Shown here: positions 17,445 to 25,384 of the stretch, piece by piece
How positions within the stretch are numbered: position 1 is the stretch's first letter
Layout: each line of letters begins with the position of its first letter
DNA from: a bacterium
GTDB lineage: Bacteria > Zhuqueibacterota > Zhuqueibacteria > Residuimicrobiales > Krinioviventaceae
Assembly: GCA_963693055.1 (NCBI GenBank)
Contig: OY843751.1
Location: forward strand, 256,001-320,000
Direction: 5' to 3'
Length of the DNA: 64,000 nucleotides
Notes under the pieces: generated by a model
What the model was told of the DNA's origin: nothing
The model's database searches: none
The model's input: only the letters and a program-made list of their open reading frames with translations
Made by a program: the position numbers and the translations under genes

Positions 17445-17552
17445 GCCTTGCCCTCAAATTCATGCAGATTTTTTAGTACATAACGTAATCAATTGCCGTG
17501 TGATTGTCAAGTAATCTAGGTACAGAGTTCGCGGCAATGCATTAAATAGTTT

Positions 17553-18201
17553 GTAGGATGCGGCTTGCCGCATCATTTTAAATAAAACAATGTATGATAA
17601 AGATGCGCCGAGGCGCATCCTACTATCTGCTATCCGGAGCCACAAAATTAACCACAGATGAAGGCGGATAAACGCAGATTAAATCCATACACCACTGGTC
17701 GTGTCGGAGAAAAGCGAAGCGGTCTCCGTCATGGGCAATATACCACGGAAAACGCGGAATGACACGGAAATAAGAACGAAACTCATTCCATTTCTGGTTC
17801 CAGTGGCTCTGCCCTGGAACCCAAAAATTAACCACAGATACACACAGATGAACACAGATAAAATCCATACCCTCTGATCGTGAGGAAGAAAAAGGTCGGT
17901 TCCTGCCCTTCGATAAACTCAGGACAAGCTCAGGAACCGTGTGATCCGTCGTTTTGTGACGGATCGTATCGAAGGGCAAAGCCAGGAAGCATTAAACCAC
18001 AAAGACACGGAGAACACAAAGAAAAGCAGCCCACGAAGCACACTAAATGACACGAAAAGGTGAACGTAATTCATTCTATTTCTGGTTCCAGTGGCTCTGC
18101 CCTGGAACTCAAAAAAATTTGACCAGACACGCGCCTATGAACACAGATAAATCCTATACCCCCTGATCGTGACGGAGATAAGCGAAGCGGTCTCCGTCAC
18201 G
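17553..18201. repeat. Left mosaic cluster of palindromic/REP-like repeats
   Basis: GTAG-type REP doublet (17553-17574, 17602-17623). Hairpin GGTTCCAGTGGCTCTGCCCTGGAAC at 17796 and 18084. Hairpin CGTGACGGAGATAAGCGAAGCGGTCTCCGTCACG at 18168, with a variant at 17700. Triplets with ~10-nt period such as ACCACAGAT-ACACACAGAT-GAACACAGAT at 17831. Confidence 0.9.
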
Positions 18202-18470
18202 GGAAGTTTGATTTAATGACCACCACGAAGAAAAACAAAATTCAAAAAAGGTATTTTGTTCTTGCATGTTGTAAAATTATTTTGGTTATTATAATATTCA
18301 TGAGGTAAAATTTTGGTGACTAGTAGTGGGTGTTAAGGATATTATATTTTTAGTATTTCTGATTTGATTTAAATATTTGTTATAAGTAATTTTTTGTTGT
18401 ACGAGTTGATACAAGTATATGTACTATATCTTGATTTTTAAATAAAGATTGAATTTGAGTGAATTGTAAA

Positions 18471-19613
18471 ATGGCAGAAAAAATAATTGTAAATTTTGAT
18501 ATACTAAAATGGGCAAGATTAAATTGTGGAAAAACAATTGAGGAAGTAGCTCGCCAAATGGGGAAATCAACTGAAATTATAGAAAATTGGGAAAATGGAA
18601 CAGAAAAGTTAACTTATGCTCAATTAGAAAAATTGGCTTACCAAGTCTATAAGCGCCCATCAGCAATATTTTTCTTCCCAAGCCCACCTGAAGAAGTTGA
18701 TCTTATTAAAGAATTTAGAACTTTACCTGAATATGAACAAAATAATTTACAATTTGATACTAGATTTGCTATTCGAAAAGCAAAAGTTTTACAAATTTCA
18801 TTGTCAGAGTTGAATGATGGAAAGAATCCTTTCAGTAAATGTATTTTTAAAGAATTTGATTTTTCAAATAATTATTATGAATTAGCAAAAAATATTCGTC
18901 ATTATTTAGAAATCGATATTAATGAGCAAAAGTCATTAATTAATCCTGAAGCTGCATTTAAGTATTGGCGTAACGCTATTGAAAATGTAGGCATATATAT
19001 TTTTAAACGTGCTTTTAAACAAAGGGATATATGTGGTTTCTCGTTGATTGATGAGGAATTCCCAATAATTTATGTAAATAACAAAAATACATTTACTAGA
19101 CAAATATTTACTTTGTTCCATGAATTAGCACACATTTTATATAAAGTACCTGGAGTTACTAAATCTAGTAATAAATATATAAAAAATTTAGACTCTGTTC
19201 ATAAAGATATTGAAAGTTGCTGTAATAGTTTTGCTGCTGAATTTCTTGTGCCTGACGAGGATTTTAATAAAATTTTTGATGGTAATATTGCAGATGATTC
19301 AATATCAAATTTATCAGACATATATAAAGTAAGTAGAGAAGTTATTTTAAGAAAAATTTTGGATATTGGTCTTATCAGTTATCAGTATTATGAAATGAAA
19401 GCTGAGGAGTGGTCAAGTCAAAAAAGAAAAGTAACAGGTAAAGGGGGTAATTATTATTTAACACAAATTGCTTACTTGGGTGAGAACTATTTAAATTTAG
19501 CATTTAGTAATTATTATAAAGGGAAATGTTCATTAGACCAATTAGCTGAATATTTTAGTATGAAGGTTACTAGCATAACAAAACTTGAAGATTATTTGAG
19601 TTATTGTCAATAG
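18471..19613 (+). CDS. Xre-HTH plus ImmA/IrrE (Peptidase M78) metallopeptidase; C-terminus altered by IS256
   Basis: N-terminal HTH 'ILKWAR...TIEEVA...IENWENG...QLEKLA'. HExxH in 'FTLFHELAH' and 'ESCCNSFAAEFLVP'. Confidence 0.9.
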   Translation: MAEKIIVNFDILKWARLNCGKTIEEVARQMGKSTEIIENWENGTEKLTYAQLEKLAYQVYKRPSAIFFFPSPPEEVDLIKEFRTLPEYEQNNLQFDTRFAIRKAKVLQISLSELNDGKNPFSKCIFKEFDFSNNYYELAKNIRHYLEIDINEQKSLINPEAAFKYWRNAIENVGIYIFKRAFKQRDICGFSLIDEEFPIIYVNNKNTFTRQIFTLFHELAHILYKVPGVTKSSNKYIKNLDSVHKDIESCCNSFAAEFLVPDEDFNKIFDGNIADDSISNLSDIYKVSREVILRKILDIGLISYQYYEMKAEEWSSQKRKVTGKGGNYYLTQIAYLGENYLNLAFSNYYKGKCSLDQLAEYFSMKVTSITKLEDYLSYCQ

Positions 19614-21037
19614 TTGTGGATCAAAAAGCGTATCCATTTCATAAAAGTTAAGCTGCCAACTTAAACAATTCCTGATTTTCCGGTTCACCATTCACAAATT
19701 TTTCTCCTTTAATCACAAATGGTATCCACTTGTACCCTCTCAAACGCCGCCACCGTTTTTCCGCTTCTTTAGCCAGTTTAAAAACCATAGTCAAAGTCGC
19801 CTGACTTGAACCGCAGCCCTTTGTTCTCCGCGTCCTGAGTCTCACTGTAGCAAAGGTAGATTCAATGGGATTCGTGGTCCGGATATGCTGCCAATGTGAA
19901 TCCGGGAAATCATAAAAAGTAAAAAGTTGATCATAATCTTTTACCAGACAATTAACAACTTTGGGATACTTGTCTTCATAAATTTTGATAAATCTATGAT
20001 AAGCGATTAACGCATTTTCTTTGGTCTCAGCCATATACATTTCATGAATAAGCGATTTGGCATTTGTCTGCGCACTTTTCGGTAGCTTATCCAATATGTT
20101 GGCTGTCTTGTGGACCCAGCAGCGCTGTTCACGAGACTCGGGATAAACTTGTGGCAAAGCTTTCCAAAAACCGAGGGCACCGTCTGCGATTGCCAGTTTC
20201 GGTCCCATCTCAAGTCCCTGGTCCTTTAACTCCAACAGCAGTTCTTTCCAGCTCAATTCGCTTTCTCGAAAGCCTTCTTTGACCGCCAAAAGCTCTTTTC
20301 GCCCATATTCGTCCGCTCCAATAATCACTAAAATACAAGGATTTACGCCTTTCAATCGAACATTGAAATAGACACCATCGGCCCAGATGTATACATAGTG
20401 TTTGCCGGACAGATCACGCCTGGCCCATTGCTTGTACTCTGACTCCCATTCTTCTTTCAAGCGCACAACCGTGTTGGCTGAAAGTCCTTTGACTTTATCT
20501 CCAAGTATAGCCGACAATGCAGCCGGGAAGTCCTGTGTCGAAATGCCCTTCAAATAAAGGGCAGGTATCAGGTTATTCAGGCTGGGTGTCCGTCTCAGGT
20601 ATTTGGGTAGTATCTCACTTGTAAAGCCTTCTACGCCATGTTCCTGCCGTAATTTCCTGTCATCCACTCGCGGCTGCCGGATCGTTATTGGACCTGAACT
20701 GGACAATATTGTGCGCTCCGGCATGGAACCATTGCGTACGGCCAGGCGGTGACCTTGTTCATCTCTGTGATTTTTATAGCGATCAAGGTATTCCTGAACT
20801 TCGTTTTCTATGGCTGCTGCCAATATTTGTTGCGCTCCATTTCGAATAATTTCATCCAAACTTTTATTGAATGTTGTGGTTTCTGCTTGCAGTTCTGACT
20901 TTGTTGTATTACCTTTTTTCATAGCGTGTCCTTTTTGGTTTTATCTTTTTTCTTGGTCGAAAAAAAATACTTAAAAACTATAGGATACGCTTTTTTATTT
21001 ATTTTTTCAAGTCATCCACAACATTAGAATATAACTC
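19598..21037 (-). mobile_element. IS256-family insertion sequence, 1440 bp, with 24-bp imperfect terminal IRs and 9-bp target-site duplication
   Basis: IRs at 19598-19621 (GAGTTATTGTCAATAGTTGTGGAT) and 21014-21037 (reverse complement GAGTTATATTCTAATGTTGTGGAT). AGATTATTT is duplicated at 19589-19597 and 21038-21046. Confidence 0.95.
19648..20922 (-). CDS. IS256-family DDE transposase
   Basis: 'YIWADGVY', 'LAIADGALGFW', 'QRCWVHK' and 'RTTNPIES' Mutator/IS256 motifs. Confidence 0.95.
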   Translation of the reverse strand: MKKGNTTKSELQAETTTFNKSLDEIIRNGAQQILAAAIENEVQEYLDRYKNHRDEQGHRLAVRNGSMPERTILSSSGPITIRQPRVDDRKLRQEHGVEGFTSEILPKYLRRTPSLNNLIPALYLKGISTQDFPAALSAILGDKVKGLSANTVVRLKEEWESEYKQWARRDLSGKHYVYIWADGVYFNVRLKGVNPCILVIIGADEYGRKELLAVKEGFRESELSWKELLLELKDQGLEMGPKLAIADGALGFWKALPQVYPESREQRCWVHKTANILDKLPKSAQTNAKSLIHEMYMAETKENALIAYHRFIKIYEDKYPKVVNCLVKDYDQLFTFYDFPDSHWQHIRTTNPIESTFATVRLRTRRTKGCGSSQATLTMVFKLAKEAEKRWRRLRGYKWIPFVIKGEKFVNGEPENQELFKLAA

Positions 21038-21068
21038 AGATTATTTCTATTTAGGGGATAAAAGATAG

Positions 21069-21539
21069 ATGATATATTTGTTTGATACTGTTGTATTTAG
21101 AATGTTTGGAAATTATTTTCCAGATAGATTTCCCTCATTTTGGGATAATTTGGAAAAATCAGTTAATAATATGGAAATTATTTCTGTAAAGGAAGTAATG
21201 AATGAAATTGATATTCAAGCAACGAAGCAATTTGTAAAGAGATGGGTTAGTGAACATAAAAAAATATTTTTTTCACCCACCAATGAGGAAATAAGTTTTA
21301 TAAGGGAACTTTTTAATATTAGTCATTTTCGGCAAATAGTTGGTATAAAACAACGATTGCAAGGTTTCCCTGTAGCTGATCCATATTTGATAGCAAGCGC
21401 AAAAATTAAAGGTGGGTGTATTGTTACTGAAGAAAAAGAAAAAAAGAATGCCGCTAAAATACCAAATCTTTGTAAACATTATTCAGTTGATTGTATAGAT
21501 TTGGAAGAATTTATGAAAAGAAATAACTGGAAATTCTAG
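21069..21539 (+). CDS. PIN-domain ribonuclease (DUF4411 type)
   Basis: 'YLFDT', 'FPSFWD', 'EVMNEI', 'ADPYLIASAK...IVTEE...KIPNLC'. This type is the usual partner of Xre-ImmA genes. Confidence 0.85.
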   Translation: MIYLFDTVVFRMFGNYFPDRFPSFWDNLEKSVNNMEIISVKEVMNEIDIQATKQFVKRWVSEHKKIFFSPTNEEISFIRELFNISHFRQIVGIKQRLQGFPVADPYLIASAKIKGGCIVTEEKEKKNAAKIPNLCKHYSVDCIDLEEFMKRNNWKF

Positions 21540-21614
21540 ATATTACGTCTTTAATTAAATTAGTTTTTTAAAATATTTACTTGAATTTTATGTACGGAAG
21601 AACTTGACAATAAT

Positions 21615-22424
21615 ATGATATGTCAAACTGAATCTCATAAAAGGATAAAAAAAGAACAACAAGAAATATGGGATTTTGCCATATTAATATGTCAATCAGT
21701 TCCAACATTAAAAAAAACTATAAAAGGTTTTGAAGAATCTATACCAAATTATAGTATTCCTAAACCTGATTATTTTATTGAATCAATAGATAAAGATAGA
21801 CTGAAAAGTATTTCTAATAATTACAAGAGCAATCTAGGGAAATATATTATTCTTAGTTTGTTTAGTTTTTTTGAATCATATTTTAAATCCGTAATGATTG
21901 AATTGATTGACTTTCATGGTGGGAAAGATAAGCTAATTGAAAATTTAAAAAAGAAAAATAGTAATTATCTTAATCAAGATGAGTGCAAAATTAAATTTAA
22001 AAGGAAATTACAAGAACCTATTAAAGATCAAAAATTTGAAAAATACAAAAAATATTCAAATTTGTTAATCAAAGAACCATATTTCCGCTTTCCAAGTGAA
22101 CTCTTTGCATTTTATGGATTGCAACGATTTATAGATGATATAATGAGTGATAACTATAGAAGTCAAATGATTCCACATATATTACAAAATGTTTTTTTAA
22201 TGAATTTGAGTCCCCGAATAAATGATTTTAAGGAAATTGAATCTATGGATTTAGCACAAACCTTCGATAGTGTTAGAAAAATACGAAATAAAATTGCACA
22301 TGGTGACAAAATTAATATTTCAATTAAAAAAGTATCAGCTTATTCAGATTTTTTACGAGAGTTTGCAATTCGAATAGATAACCATTTATTAGAGCATTTT
22401 TTTATTATAGAAAAATATATGTAG
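21615..22424 (+). CDS. HEPN-domain protein (RiboL-PSP/MAE_28990-like), putative RNase
   Basis: Helical protein with 'SLFSFFESYF' N-terminal HEPN helix and a C-terminal RxxxxH motif 'RNKIAH(G)'. Confidence 0.7.
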   Translation: MICQTESHKRIKKEQQEIWDFAILICQSVPTLKKTIKGFEESIPNYSIPKPDYFIESIDKDRLKSISNNYKSNLGKYIILSLFSFFESYFKSVMIELIDFHGGKDKLIENLKKKNSNYLNQDECKIKFKRKLQEPIKDQKFEKYKKYSNLLIKEPYFRFPSELFAFYGLQRFIDDIMSDNYRSQMIPHILQNVFLMNLSPRINDFKEIESMDLAQTFDSVRKIRNKIAHGDKINISIKKVSAYSDFLREFAIRIDNHLLEHFFIIEKYM

Positions 22425-22528
22425 TCCATTTGGTCTAACGGTTAAGACGCCCGTTACCCTAAAAATATTAATAATTGTATTTTTGGGAAAACGGGAGATG
22501 GGGTTCGAATCCTCAATGGACTACATAT
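22417..22528 (+). ncRNA. tRNA-like structured RNA with the anticodon loop replaced by a long AT-rich hairpin (not a canonical tRNA)
   Basis: Closing helix ATATGTAGTCCATT/AATGGACTACATAT (14 bp perfect). D arm GTCT-AACGGTTA-AGAC. Stem CCCGTT/AACGGG enclosing 34 nt. T arm GGGG-TTCGAAT-CCTC. No 3' CCA. Confidence 0.75.
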
Positions 22529-22559
22529 CGTTATAAATTTTTAATTTGGGCAATAGTTC

Positions 22560-23592
22560 GTAGGATACAGCTTGCCGCATCAAAAATAATTAAAAGATGC
22601 GCCGAGGCGCATCCTACTAACTGCTATCTGGAGCCACAAAATTAACCACAGATAAATCCAACAGTGGGCGAATACGCACTGATGAACACAAAGCCCACAC
22701 TCCCAGATCGTGACGGTGAAAGTGTCGGTCCCTGAGTGTTCGCCGAAGGCGAACGTATCGAAGGGCCGACTGAGAGAGATATGTACAAAAAGTACAACAA
22801 AAATCTTTTCGCTTCTGGTTCCAGTGGCTCTGCCCTGGAACCCAAAATTAACCAGACATGCGCAGATAAACGCAGATAAAAAACAAAAGATCGTGACGGA
22901 GATAAGCGAAGCGGTCTCCGTAACGGGAGGAATGAATTGTCCTGTCAGGGACAAGATATTTTTAGCACAAACAAAAAAACAGATTACCATCCCGTAGGGA
23001 TGGGATAGAATAATAGAACTATGATATCGCATCCCTACGGGATGCAGATTGTTGTTTGGGTGTTAACTACAAATATTTCATCCCTAGCGGGATGAATTCT
23101 CGTTATTTTAAACATTCCTGGATTATAATCTTACTTCGTGCCCTTCTTTTCTTCGTGGTTCATTTTTTTAATCTTGTCAGCGACTTATCCCTATAATACC
23201 AAAGCAAAGCTTTTTACCAAATTCCCCACCCAAATGAAATTTGGGCGGGAGTGGATTCATGATCTTATAATCATATCTGCAAAATAGATATCTGCGTTCA
23301 TTTGTGGTTAATTTATCGCTCGACCCTTCGATACGTTCGCCTTCGGCGAACACTCAGGGACCGACTTTTTCTCCGTCACGGTCAGGGGGTATGGATTTGA
23401 TCTGCGTTAATCTGCGCTTATCTGTGGTTCATTATACCTTTGTGAGCTTTGTGGCTTTGTGGTAAATCTTTCATACTACCTTGCTTTCAACGTGACGGAG
23501 ACCGCTTCGCTTAATTCCGTCACGATCAGGTGCTATGGATTTAATCTGCATTCATCTGTGCGTGTTCGCCCACTGGTGAATGTATCTGTGGT
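22560..23592. repeat. Right mosaic cluster of palindromic/REP-like repeats, with internal inverted organisation
   Basis: REP doublet 22560-22617 nearly identical to the left copy. GGTTCCAG hairpin at 22817 and CGTGACGGAG hairpin at 22892, the latter inverted at 23491. Perfect 42-bp inverted pair 22724-22765 / 23324-23365. Four short hairpins at 22937-23096, three of them ATCCC...GGGAT type. Confidence 0.9.
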
Positions 23593-23683
23593 AAATAATT
23601 CTAACCAACATTTTCTGCTTGCATCTCAACCGTGAAATCAGGTTATTATAACCAGAAATTTATCCAACCCAACGGGAGCAAGC

Positions 23684-25384
23684 ATGTTTAAGCAAAAAGA
23701 GATTTTCTTCATCCTGATCACAGTATTGATTTACGGCATCGCCCACAGCCAGACCAGCACCATCTATCATCTGGACCGGACCATCGGATTTGAATCCGAG
23801 TTTCCGCAATCCGAATGGGACGTTAAACGCCAATCCGGCAGGATCATTGGCGCTGAACCGGCCCTGTTTCTGGATGATACCTTTATCATGGGCAGCCGAA
23901 ATGTGAAACGCACATTGCATGCAGTGAACAAATACTCTGAACCGATGATTTTACCCGTTTCCGAAAAGCTGATGAAATCCCCTACAATCTTTTCCATTGT
24001 TCCCGATGCGGATGACAAGGGCTATATTGCCTATTGTGGGGGCGCATTTGAAAAGAAAACCTTGTACTCGGTTTTTCATACCACAGACGGCAAGTCATTT
24101 ACGCCCATCATAACCGACCAGCTCCCGTCCGAAGAGATTTGGGATGGACTCGATAAAGGGGACATTCCTGAGCATAATAATATTTTAAATTTAAACAAAT
24201 TCAACGGCGAGGCATTTACTTCGTATTACTCGGCGTTTTTCAAAGTACAGGAAGAAACCAGGTATCCCTATCGGGCCATCATCATTCGTTCCAAACCGCG
24301 TCCCCGGCAGGTTATGATCATCCAGTCCCAAGATGGATTAAACTGGCAGGCCATGCCCAACCAGACACAGCGGGATATACTGGGTGAAGCCAATCAACCC
24401 GCGTACGATCCCTTTCACGACCGCTATCTCTGCTACCTGCGCCTGTGGGATCCGCCCTCCAAGATCGTTTCGAGTTGGCGAAAGGTGCTGTTTAGTGAAG
24501 CTTCCTTTGGTCCGGACGGAGCGACATGGTCTGATGATGAGCTGGTACTGGAAGCTGGCCCCCAGGACGGTCCGTCAACGGACATTTATTTCATGCAGGT
24601 GACCGGTTACGCGGGCGGATATATTGGGATCCCGGTCATGTATCATCGTCCTTCTTCACTGGACCCTGAAATGGCGGGAAAGTTTCATTGCGAACTCGCT
24701 TTTAGCCATGACGGCCGCAATTGGGACCGGGTTTGTCAGGGTGAACCGTTCCTGTCAACCGGCCCCAAAAACAGTTGGGATGCGGGACTGGTCTGGATGA
24801 ATTGTCCGCCAATCGTCAAAAACGACAGTCTCTATTTTTACTACACCGGTAGAAAATACGATCATGATGAGATCAAACCGCGGGACCACAAAGTACAAGC
24901 CGGGTTGGCAACCCTTCGAGCGGACGGATTTGTCTCTATGGACGCGGGAGAGGAAACCGGAACCCTGCTGACGACCCTGTTCTGGCCGGAGGGTAAACAT
25001 TTGTATATTAACGCGGATGCCAGCGGAGGAGAAATCCGCGTAGAGGTATTGCAGGACTATCATTATGTGGAATTGAAAAAAGTGGAAAAGTATTCTGAGG
25101 ATATTCAAGGACTGTTTCGTGCGGAGAATTGTATTCCTTTTACCAGTAATGCTATTAATCACAAGGTAGCCTGGAAACATGATGAGAATTTTGTGGAAAA
25201 TTTCCCTCAAAACTGGTTGGATTTGGAGGATTCTGATAAATACAGTAAAAAGAAAAAGCCCTTTGAAAAAAGGGCCATTGCATTAAAGTTTTATCTGAAA
25301 AATGCAAAACTGTACAGTTTCTGGTTTGCTGATGATGATACCGAACCGCTGGAAAACGGACGGTTGGTACCGGTATCGAAATGA
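23684..25384 (+). CDS. Secreted glycoside hydrolase-like beta-propeller protein, paralog of 1-1193
   Basis: Signal peptide, 'SQDGLNW', 'SHDGRNW', 'LRADGFVSMDAG...LYINAD...LYSFWF'. Confidence 0.6.
   Translation: MFKQKEIFFILITVLIYGIAHSQTSTIYHLDRTIGFESEFPQSEWDVKRQSGRIIGAEPALFLDDTFIMGSRNVKRTLHAVNKYSEPMILPVSEKLMKSPTIFSIVPDADDKGYIAYCGGAFEKKTLYSVFHTTDGKSFTPIITDQLPSEEIWDGLDKGDIPEHNNILNLNKFNGEAFTSYYSAFFKVQEETRYPYRAIIIRSKPRPRQVMIIQSQDGLNWQAMPNQTQRDILGEANQPAYDPFHDRYLCYLRLWDPPSKIVSSWRKVLFSEASFGPDGATWSDDELVLEAGPQDGPSTDIYFMQVTGYAGGYIGIPVMYHRPSSLDPEMAGKFHCELAFSHDGRNWDRVCQGEPFLSTGPKNSWDAGLVWMNCPPIVKNDSLYFYYTGRKYDHDEIKPRDHKVQAGLATLRADGFVSMDAGEETGTLLTTLFWPEGKHLYINADASGGEIRVEVLQDYHYVELKKVEKYSEDIQGLFRAENCIPFTSNAINHKVAWKHDENFVENFPQNWLDLEDSDKYSKKKKPFEKRAIALKFYLKNAKLYSFWFADDDTEPLENGRLVPVSK

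Follow-up and report, generated by a model that had tools for sequence, protein, structure and literature searches.

The 64,000-nt stretch of bacterial DNA analysed here (GCA_963693055.1, contig OY843751.1, positions 256,001-320,000 of the forward strand; hereafter the window, with coordinates counted from its first letter) carries a two-part module, consisting of a RiboL-PSP-type HEPN gene and, at its 3' end, an RNA element shaped like a transfer RNA (tRNA). Comparison with related loci strongly supports the view that this RNA is inherited together with the adjacent RxxxxH HEPN gene as its conserved partner, and that it is not a tRNA remnant or an attachment (att) site. What the partner does is judged by analogy: we put at about one in two the probability that the RNA is the cognate inhibitor of the HEPN protein, in a system resembling type III toxin-antitoxin or abortive-infection modules. 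The RNA is read as a partner, and most likely as an inhibitor, because of the parallel with the AbiF and AbiV systems and because it is the sole constant companion of this branch of HEPN genes.

The HEPN gene closes with the codons ATG TAG, and its 269-residue product is a predicted RNA-cutting enzyme with an intact RxxxxH motif. The assignment to this class, proposed in an earlier sequence-only reading of the stretch, is borne out by the Pfam profile PF18735, which matches the protein at 50 bits (cut-off 28.4; E 4.5e-13) over profile positions 15-190 of 191 and is present in all 32 homologues collected; within the alignment of 25 family members (A1), R224, N225 and H229 of the motif are invariant. 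The AlphaFold2 (AF2) model (mean predicted local distance difference test, pLDDT, 88.4) found no match at E <= 0.001 in a Foldseek search of the PDB. An exhaustive VIA-align comparison placed HEPN or HEPN-like chains in all of its top nine positions, with Z values of 9.1-10.2, values below about 13 being only suggestive for helical bundles. The matches include SO_3166 (10.2), an AMPylated HEPN toxin (9.8), AF_0298 (9.6), the sacsin HEPN domain (9.3) and HepS bound to a phage tail tip (9oik, 7.2), the HEPN-MNT toxins, SO_3166 among them, spanning 8.7-10.2. A family-profile sequence search of the PDB found no relative, its best hit (E 0.007) being an unrelated Tet4 variant; PADLOC and NCBIfam offered no meaningful match to the protein as part of any system, and collections of plasmids and phages contained none. 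A homologue of 39% identity occurs on a viral contig (L099), without the tRNA-like RNA. In Anantharaman et al. (2013), "Ribo L-PSP-HEPN" is listed with a conserved RxxxxH motif and as "distantly related AbiF and AbiD" (PMC3710099).

The cloverleaf that the sequence-only reading had placed at 22417-22528, overlapping the HEPN stop codon, was recovered in every coordinate and sub-element (Table 1). RNAfold gives it -45.8 kcal/mol, compared with -24.5 +/- 3.4 kcal/mol for 200 dinucleotide shuffles, none of which was as stable. The Rfam tRNA model matches the core from the G of the stop codon onwards (44.3 bits against a gathering score of 29; E 2.4e-8) and sets 35 nt of it against six anticodon-loop positions. 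U8 lies at 22431, the variable loop reads AGAT, and a 14-bp closing helix pairs 22417-22430 with 22515-22528; in this register the T stem has 4 bp. Where a tRNA has its 7-nt anticodon loop, a stem (22450-22455 with 22490-22495) flanks a 34-nt AT-rich hairpin, as had been recognised from the letters alone; the long arm as a whole is a 46-nt hairpin of 17 bp. No direct-repeat family lies inside 22400-22550, and the element is single and non-repeated. No terminator-like site follows it on the + strand of the window. A terminator role for the acceptor stem and a U tract was considered and rejected, the 3' trailers of the elements showing no consistent T run.

The window element is no ordinary tRNA. 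It retains a cloverleaf and elbow that score above the Rfam gathering threshold and lacks the decoding part, namely a 5-bp anticodon stem, a 7-nt loop, U33 and an anticodon. A default ARAGORN run over the whole window reports no tRNA. Once introns are permitted, the program draws a "tRNA-Pro(ggg)" of odd build, whose acceptor has 8 bp and whose T stem has 4 bp, and which carries 27 nt inserted at a non-canonical position. The element is single-copy in its 6.5-Mb genome, and none of the 44 tRNAs of that genome is closely similar; the covariance model R2 gives it 88.8 bits, compared with 38.7 bits for the best real tRNA of the same genome and 44.4 bits for the best one of another. Apart from tRNA, no Rfam 15 family matches the element, be it in the window or in 20 related loci, and with the fast filters on, only three of the elements in those 20 loci pass as tRNA. 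No CCA is encoded, as had been stated, and this had been counted as an argument for a departure from tRNA; as an argument it loses its force, because only one of ten inspected tRNA genes of the same genome ends in CCA, so that its absence is little informative; a CCA end could also be supplied post-transcriptionally.

The element recurs beside homologous genes. Of 88 fetched loci, 70 came from metagenomes and 18 from genomes of species. In 13 of them intron-tolerant ARAGORN placed a tRNA-like element -3 to +27 nt from the HEPN stop, in six it placed one upstream of the gene, and a covariance model, R1, was built from 19 of these elements. Run over the 88 loci and the window, R1 returned 35 matches at E <= 1; after removal of a real tRNA-Lys and a 15-nt fragment (E 0.92), 33 elements remained, in the window and in 29 of the 88 HEPN loci. 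The fold thus accompanies homologues of the protein, and does so with covariation, which is how the downstream-fold check proposed with the sequence-only reading came out. Positions were counted on a model-fitted alignment of 30 non-redundant elements (A4). In this set 21 lie 3' of the HEPN gene on the same strand, and in 16 of these the outermost acceptor pair lies within -2 to +5 nt of the final stop-codon base; seven of the 21 overlap the stop codon, and five start 9-30 nt after it. Six are placed divergently upstream, the RNA 5' end lying 46-306 nt from the HEPN start codon, and three are upstream on the same strand, ending 15-39 nt ahead of the start. Two loci, L009 3831-4919 (duplicate L028) and L038 2277-3325, bear two tRNA-like elements of different sequence on either side of the HEPN gene, the upstream copies ending 15-22 nt ahead of the start codon; more than one element per side was never seen. 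The hosts named in the locus records belong to Bacteroidota, Spirochaetota, Cyanobacteriota and Pseudomonadota. A sample of 150 genomes from the phylum of the window (E <= 1e-9) gave one further match, a real tRNA-Val at 44.4 bits, and neither the RNA nor the HEPN protein was found in the 40 nearest genomes. In one locus (L081), a normal tRNA-Ile(gat) gene at 817-892 begins right after the HEPN-linked element, which spans 686-816.

Conservation acts on the fold. In a purely sequence-based alignment made by MAFFT only (A2), standard pairs fill 80.7% of the cells, compared with 60.2% in shuffles, and the covariation score is 0.64 against 0.24, a value reached by none of 500 shuffles and falling to 0.16-0.32 when pairing partners are slid by 1-3 columns. 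Alignment A4, which is biased towards the model, has 82.2% of its cells paired (shuffles 60.8%), a share that rises to 95% in the D stem and 100% in the T stem. RNAalifold, working from a separate MAFFT alignment restricted to the nine closest relatives, recovered the cloverleaf and the long arm independently: its consensus has a 7-bp acceptor, a 3-nt connector, the D stem, an arm of 6 bp, a 1x1 loop and 7 bp, and a 5-bp T stem, with compensatory changes in 18 of 28 pairs. The 4-bp T stem described earlier thus holds in its own register and gives way to one of 5 bp, with the 7-bp acceptor and 3-nt connector, in this alternative. The elbow nucleotides U8, G10, A14, G18, G19, G53, U54, U55, C56, A58 and C61 are each retained in 24-30 of the 30 elements.

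The long arm varies freely in sequence across the family and is kept as a structure. It forms one hairpin in 27 of 30 elements, with a median of 47 nt (range 34-90), 18 bp and a 4-nt terminal loop (3-8 nt in all), and compared with shuffles it folds with z < -2 in 28 of 30 (median z -5.1). Beyond 8 bp the closing helix continues for 6 bp in the window and for 4-5 bp in two more of the 30 elements, and the other 27 add 0-2 bp; the perfect 14-bp helix noted earlier is therefore real in the window and peculiar to it, and is no family feature. What the family shares is an RNA that keeps the tRNA elbow and a 7-8-bp acceptor stem, with a hairpin rod of about 18 bp replacing the 7-nt loop.

Table 1. 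Coordinates of the module and of the cargo region that carries it, in window positions
Feature	Position	Strand	Basis
HEPN gene, RiboL-PSP-HEPN family, 269 aa; TAG stop at 22422-22424	21615..22424	+	Open reading frame; Pfam PF18735; AF2 model
RxxxxH catalytic motif, R224-N-K-I-A-H229 (predicted)	22284..22301	+	Read in sequence; alignment
tRNA-shaped RNA core: acceptor, D arm, long arm, T arm	22424..22522	+	Rfam RF00005 44.3 bits; models R1 87.1 and R2 88.8 bits; fold z -6.2
Closing helix, 5' strand, including last sense codon and TAG; family-conserved part is the inner 7-8 bp only	22417..22430	+	Sequence, RNAfold, family comparison
D arm, 4-bp stem and 8-nt loop, A14, G18 G19	22433..22448	+	Sequence; D-stem cells 95% paired, elbow near-invariant (30 elements)
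Long arm in place of anticodon stem-loop: 6-bp base, small internal loop, 11-bp AT-rich helix, 8-nt terminal loop	22450..22495	+	Folding; arm z -5.1
T arm, loop of GGTTCGAATCC type	22500..22514	+	T-stem cells 100% paired; G53, U54, C61 invariant in 30/30
Closing helix, 3' strand	22515..22528	+	Sequence, RNAfold, family comparison
Strain-specific low-GC cargo: HTH-M78 gene, IS256-type transposase, DUF4411 gene, HEPN gene, tRNA-like RNA	18317..22639		GC; comparison with same-genus genome G001

The RNA and the HEPN gene also diverge together. Over 24 RNA-protein pairs, the identity of the RNA core and that of the HEPN protein correlate with r 0.77, a value equalled by none of 2000 Mantel permutations. 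In a tree of 59 distinct full-length HEPN proteins, from which partial genes and rows with internal stops were omitted, all 13 rows of the clade to which the window belongs have the RNA downstream; the six divergent cases fall in a second clade, and five further downstream cases are scattered. Gene and RNA co-occur, are co-inherited and move jointly between phyla.

In the divergent clade, the RNA is best described as a separate gene. Five of the six divergent loci (L017, L057, L061, L059 and L049) have a sigma-70-like site on the RNA strand, with 10-11 of 12 consensus matches, ending 6-10 nt ahead of the acceptor, so that a transcription start there would coincide with the mature 5' end; the GC-rich sixth locus (L015) has no such site by this consensus. 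These five loci form two related groups and count as about two independent observations, in which the consensus match is no proof and the placement is consistent with a promoter of the RNA's own. Since these copies lie on the opposite strand and carry promoter-like sites of their own, the RNA must be more than a part of the HEPN mRNA. In three of the loci (L017 3962-4001, and likewise L057 and L061), the promoter-like site occupies the 46-48-nt spacer to within about 10 nt of the HEPN start codon; with the spacer filled in this way, the HEPN promoter must lie in or past the RNA gene, and the HEPN 5' leader may therefore be antisense to the RNA, adding antisense control. The proposal that the RNA is the partner of the adjacent HEPN protein accordingly comes through in part: conservation and co-inheritance uphold it, while the RNA does not belong to the HEPN mRNA in every locus and is not detected in about half of the family.

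Pairs of a HEPN RNase with a dedicated non-coding RNA (ncRNA) have precedents. AbiF and AbiV are HEPN toxins that, according to two reports, are neutralised by an adjacent ncRNA blocking the active site (PMC13064643; bioRxiv 10.1101/2025.04.15.648962). The present module resembles AbiF/AbiD (Abi_2 HEPN proteins, classed as type III toxin-antitoxin and proposed as Cas13 ancestors) in having an HEPN RNase of a related branch, a defence context and a conserved structured ncRNA gene as its sole constant neighbour. The AbiF RNA is described as lying upstream and consisting of two hairpin motifs of 36-37 nt (bioRxiv 10.1101/2025.04.15.648962), whereas the present RNA is a full tRNA-shaped cloverleaf that bears a long arm, in most cases lies 3' of the gene and overlaps its stop. 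The abiF motif RF03085 has no match in window positions 18200-23700 at E <= 1, nor in 20 related loci at its gathering score, and, unlike AbiF/AbiD, the present protein gives only a weak echo of Abi_2, below the Pfam cut-off (21.6 against 25.6 bits). With AbiV and with ToxIN/AbiQ the module would share the principle of a protein endoribonuclease toxin neutralised by an adjacent RNA, as set out in PMC13064643.

As in type III systems, a structured ncRNA gene adjoins the presumed toxin gene and is conserved with it; no antitoxin in the form of a toxin-cut tandem-repeat array was found. ToxI-type antitoxins (ToxIN, CptIN, TenpIN) are tandem-repeat arrays cleaved into single units by their own toxin, and ToxN and AbiQ are not known as HEPN proteins; the present RNA, in contrast, is single and non-repeated, with a shape that could suit processing by host tRNA enzymes. 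Other RNAs that keep acceptor, D and T elements and replace the anticodon part are YrlA, mascRNA (cut from MALAT1) and the tRNA-like domain of tmRNA; RNase P and RNase Z free mascRNA from the long transcript that contains it. None of these mimics is known to be paired with a HEPN gene, and Pfam scans of the window neighbours and of 72 neighbours elsewhere revealed no Ro/TROVE, RtcB or SmpB gene, hence no Ro60/TROVE gene beside the RNA as in YrlA/Ro systems. Among HEPN nucleases, PrrC, RloC and HepS cut anticodon loops, and HepT of HEPN-MNT trims tRNA 3' ends; the RxxxxH motif, and probably the HEPN fold, is common to them and the present protein, for which tRNA is a plausible substrate. Their controls are proteins (a restriction-modification partner, MNT AMPylation, a phage tail sensor), in contrast to the RNA partner considered here. 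The literature search, incomplete in coverage, with most subscription journals outside it, yielded no account of a HEPN gene coupled to a tRNA-like RNA, nor did Rfam, PADLOC or NCBIfam, in agreement with the earlier statement that no described family has this layout. The RNA family is thus undescribed in the resources searched, and the module extends the known theme, represented by AbiF and AbiV, of an HEPN RNase with a dedicated ncRNA.

If the RNA is an inhibitor, its action may be pictured as follows. In the window it would be transcribed as the 3' end of the HEPN mRNA and excised by RNase P and RNase Z, the RNase P cut inside or next to the TAG codon leaving the 3' end of the toxin mRNA unprotected. 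The stable, L-shaped product would then bind the HEPN protein as a tRNA look-alike, the protein probably being a dimer, in keeping with the HEPN superfamily, and would present a duplex where an anticodon loop would be cut, thereby blocking the active site. Once the RNA supply fails, for instance upon a phage-induced shut-off of host transcription, free HEPN protein would cut cellular RNA, most likely tRNA, and growth would stop. In its most specific form, which we put forward tentatively and would not yet back, this becomes a new class of immune module, in which an AbiF-related HEPN tRNase would be restrained by its own tRNA decoy, furnished with an uncuttable duplex rod and either excised by RNase P and RNase Z or made from its own promoter, and in which loss of or damage to the decoy on infection would free the nuclease.

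Several observations weigh against an inhibitory role. No element is detectable for 35 of the 59 distinct HEPN proteins, 25 of which have at least 350 nt of upstream and 150 nt of downstream sequence, and a filter-free search of 34 element-less loci returned nothing above E 0.2. Element-less HEPN clades have no conserved protein partner, and a sequence-level comparison of element-less loci found no conservation of the flanks beyond near-identical contigs. For these reasons the HEPN protein may not be toxic alone, and the RNA may be an accessory instead of an antitoxin; either the element-less clades have a partner of an unrecognised sort or the HEPN protein needs none. The gene order differs as well: the RNA gene of known type III systems is usually found upstream of the toxin, with a terminator setting the RNA excess, whereas most copies here lie downstream. 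As to the elements themselves, the upstream copy at L038:2277 has an unstructured 47-nt insert and no hairpin arm, and eight matches score at or below 44.2 bits (L070 at 44.2, L037 at 42, L032, L081, L026, the truncated L053 and the upstream copies of L009/L028), where real tRNAs also score; these eight were accepted on their long arm and their position beside a HEPN gene.

An alternative use of the same fold is as a cis-acting handle on the HEPN transcript, at which a cut by RNase P or RNase Z would set the mRNA ends and tune expression without any RNA-protein complex; a cut at or in the stop codon would leave a stop-less or unprotected message to be degraded, its product perhaps tagged by tmRNA. 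The tight placement of the elements speaks for it, with 16 of 21 downstream copies beginning -2 to +5 nt from the last stop base, seven of the 21 overlapping the stop, and the same-strand upstream copies ending 15-39 nt ahead of the start codon, as do the absence of a + strand terminator-like site after the window element and the real tRNA-Ile that directly follows the L081 element, which fits a common processing route. We nevertheless regard it as unlikely. The six opposite-strand copies, five with a strong promoter-like site at the RNA 5' end, cannot be handles on a HEPN mRNA, five downstream elements begin 9-30 nt past the stop, and the long arm is structurally conserved, although recognition by RNase P and RNase Z should not require it. 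Somewhat less probable still is a positive role, in which the RNA would be a sensor, that is, a decoy tRNA cut, modified or bound by phage enzymes and read by the HEPN protein, or else a scaffold for finding targets. The association evidence is shared with the inhibitor reading, and a HEPN protein that stays silent until triggered would fit the half or so of the family that has neither the RNA nor a conserved protein antitoxin; phage-sensing HEPN relatives are also among the structural matches (HepS with the phage tail tip). Against it, the arms are fully paired rods with 3-8-nt terminal loops, which leave little single strand for guiding, and the known pairs of HEPN and RNA, AbiF and AbiV, are inhibitory.

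Two further explanations would dissolve the partnership altogether, and both are highly improbable. The first holds that the element has nothing to do with HEPN and is the relic of an ordinary tRNA, an att site, an attC-like site as in integrons, or a fold that arose by chance next to a mobile gene; it would be suggested by the resemblance to tRNA, by the position near the right end of a low-GC cargo in a repeat-flanked hotspot and by the fact that tRNA genes are common integration targets. It is contradicted, as a possibility that the sequence-only reading had itself named as fatal to its proposal, by recurrence with HEPN homologues of four phyla, by compensatory changes and by co-divergence; the element is moreover single in the genome and not closely similar to any of its 44 tRNAs, no direct repeat of its 3' part occurs at the other end of the cargo, and the L009 and L038 modules sit between housekeeping genes. 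A miniature inverted-repeat transposable element (MITE) or short interspersed element (SINE) was ruled out by the single copy in the genome. A working tRNA gene whose short intron is spliced to give a decoding tRNA has hardly any chance either: intron-tolerant ARAGORN does draw a tRNA with a 27-nt insert here and likewise in 19 other loci, but the "anticodons" so obtained differ even among close relatives (Met, Phe, Gly, Arg, Ser, Ile, Glu), the inserts stand at non-canonical positions, in the clade of the window the acceptor/T register is displaced by one position, and removal of the arm, a wholly paired rod, leaves no 7-nt loop. Splicing of such short tRNA introns is not known from bacteria.

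The module is accessory cargo of a variable hotspot. The cargo has a GC content of 24-33% (41-47% in its insertion sequence, IS), compared with 42-55% in the flanks, and the module lies at its right end; a genome of the same genus (G001) has the same flanks and repeat arrays with another low-GC cargo and no match to the region. Related arrays of repeat units, of about 180-290 nt with embedded GC-rich hairpins, frame the cargo at 17545-18316 and 22552-23600, with repeat parts 95% identical between 17599-17662 and 22593-22656, and parts of the flanking unit, with 20 BLAST hits altogether, are found again at some ten further sites of the genome. With different cargo framed by the arrays in the window and in G001, the site looks like a repeat-flanked hotspot for accessory genes. 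The counterpart site in G001 (L103 = G001:C3:740600-744500, 856-2177) holds an insert of about 1.5 kb at 20-25% GC with open reading frames of 231 and 184 aa. To the right of the module, inside a repeat unit, lies a terminator-like hairpin with a T run (22594-22615, minus strand), with no convincing minus-strand gene further right.

The other cargo genes have affinities of their own. The HTH and M78 peptidase gene (18459-19613) is RmrA-like by PADLOC and antitoxin-like by NCBIfam, and together with the DUF4411 gene (21069-21539) it resembles a two-gene pair, which is split by the IS256/Mutator-family transposase gene (19648-20922, minus strand; GC 41-47% against about 27% around it). Across loci, the neighbouring open reading frames form no common family, clusters arising from duplicate contigs only. 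Pfam domains in 72 neighbours include OLD-type ATPase-TOPRIM, HEPN/Toprim, AbiJ-TIR, methylase-Mrr, RmuC, the type I restriction-modification S subunit, AbiTii, AIPR, NYN, Fic, reverse transcriptase and integrases, with plain housekeeping genes elsewhere, as on both sides of the L009 and L038 modules. Three single loci add side observations: an endoribonuclease L-PSP (RidA/YjgF-type) gene lies 162 nt 3' of the HEPN gene in L017 (4927-5319), recalling the fusion behind the name of the HEPN family; L039, a locus without the RNA, has at 1171-1878 on the minus strand a second, weaker RiboL-PSP-HEPN paralogue (26.7 bits, just below the cut-off), convergent to its HEPN gene; and a group II intron fragment (RF02001, 53.5 bits, truncated by the contig end) lies at 2368-2477 on the minus strand of L027, 1.3 kb 3' of the HEPN and tRNA-like module.

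HEPN RNases with dedicated RNAs are the presumed stock from which Cas13 arose, according to PMC12165695. Should the decoy reading be correct, the present module would represent a second independent route, beside that from AbiF to Cas13, by which a HEPN enzyme has gained a dedicated structured RNA. The partners of HEPN proteins known so far are small hairpins, and a full tRNA mimic in this role would hint at what these enzymes recognise. It would likewise constitute a natural pseudo-substrate inhibitor of a tRNA-directed nuclease, and a bacterial case of a functional RNA freed from an mRNA 3' end by the tRNA-processing machinery. With gene and RNA together occupying about 0.95 kb, the module is small and portable, and the covariance model can be used to find further members of the family.

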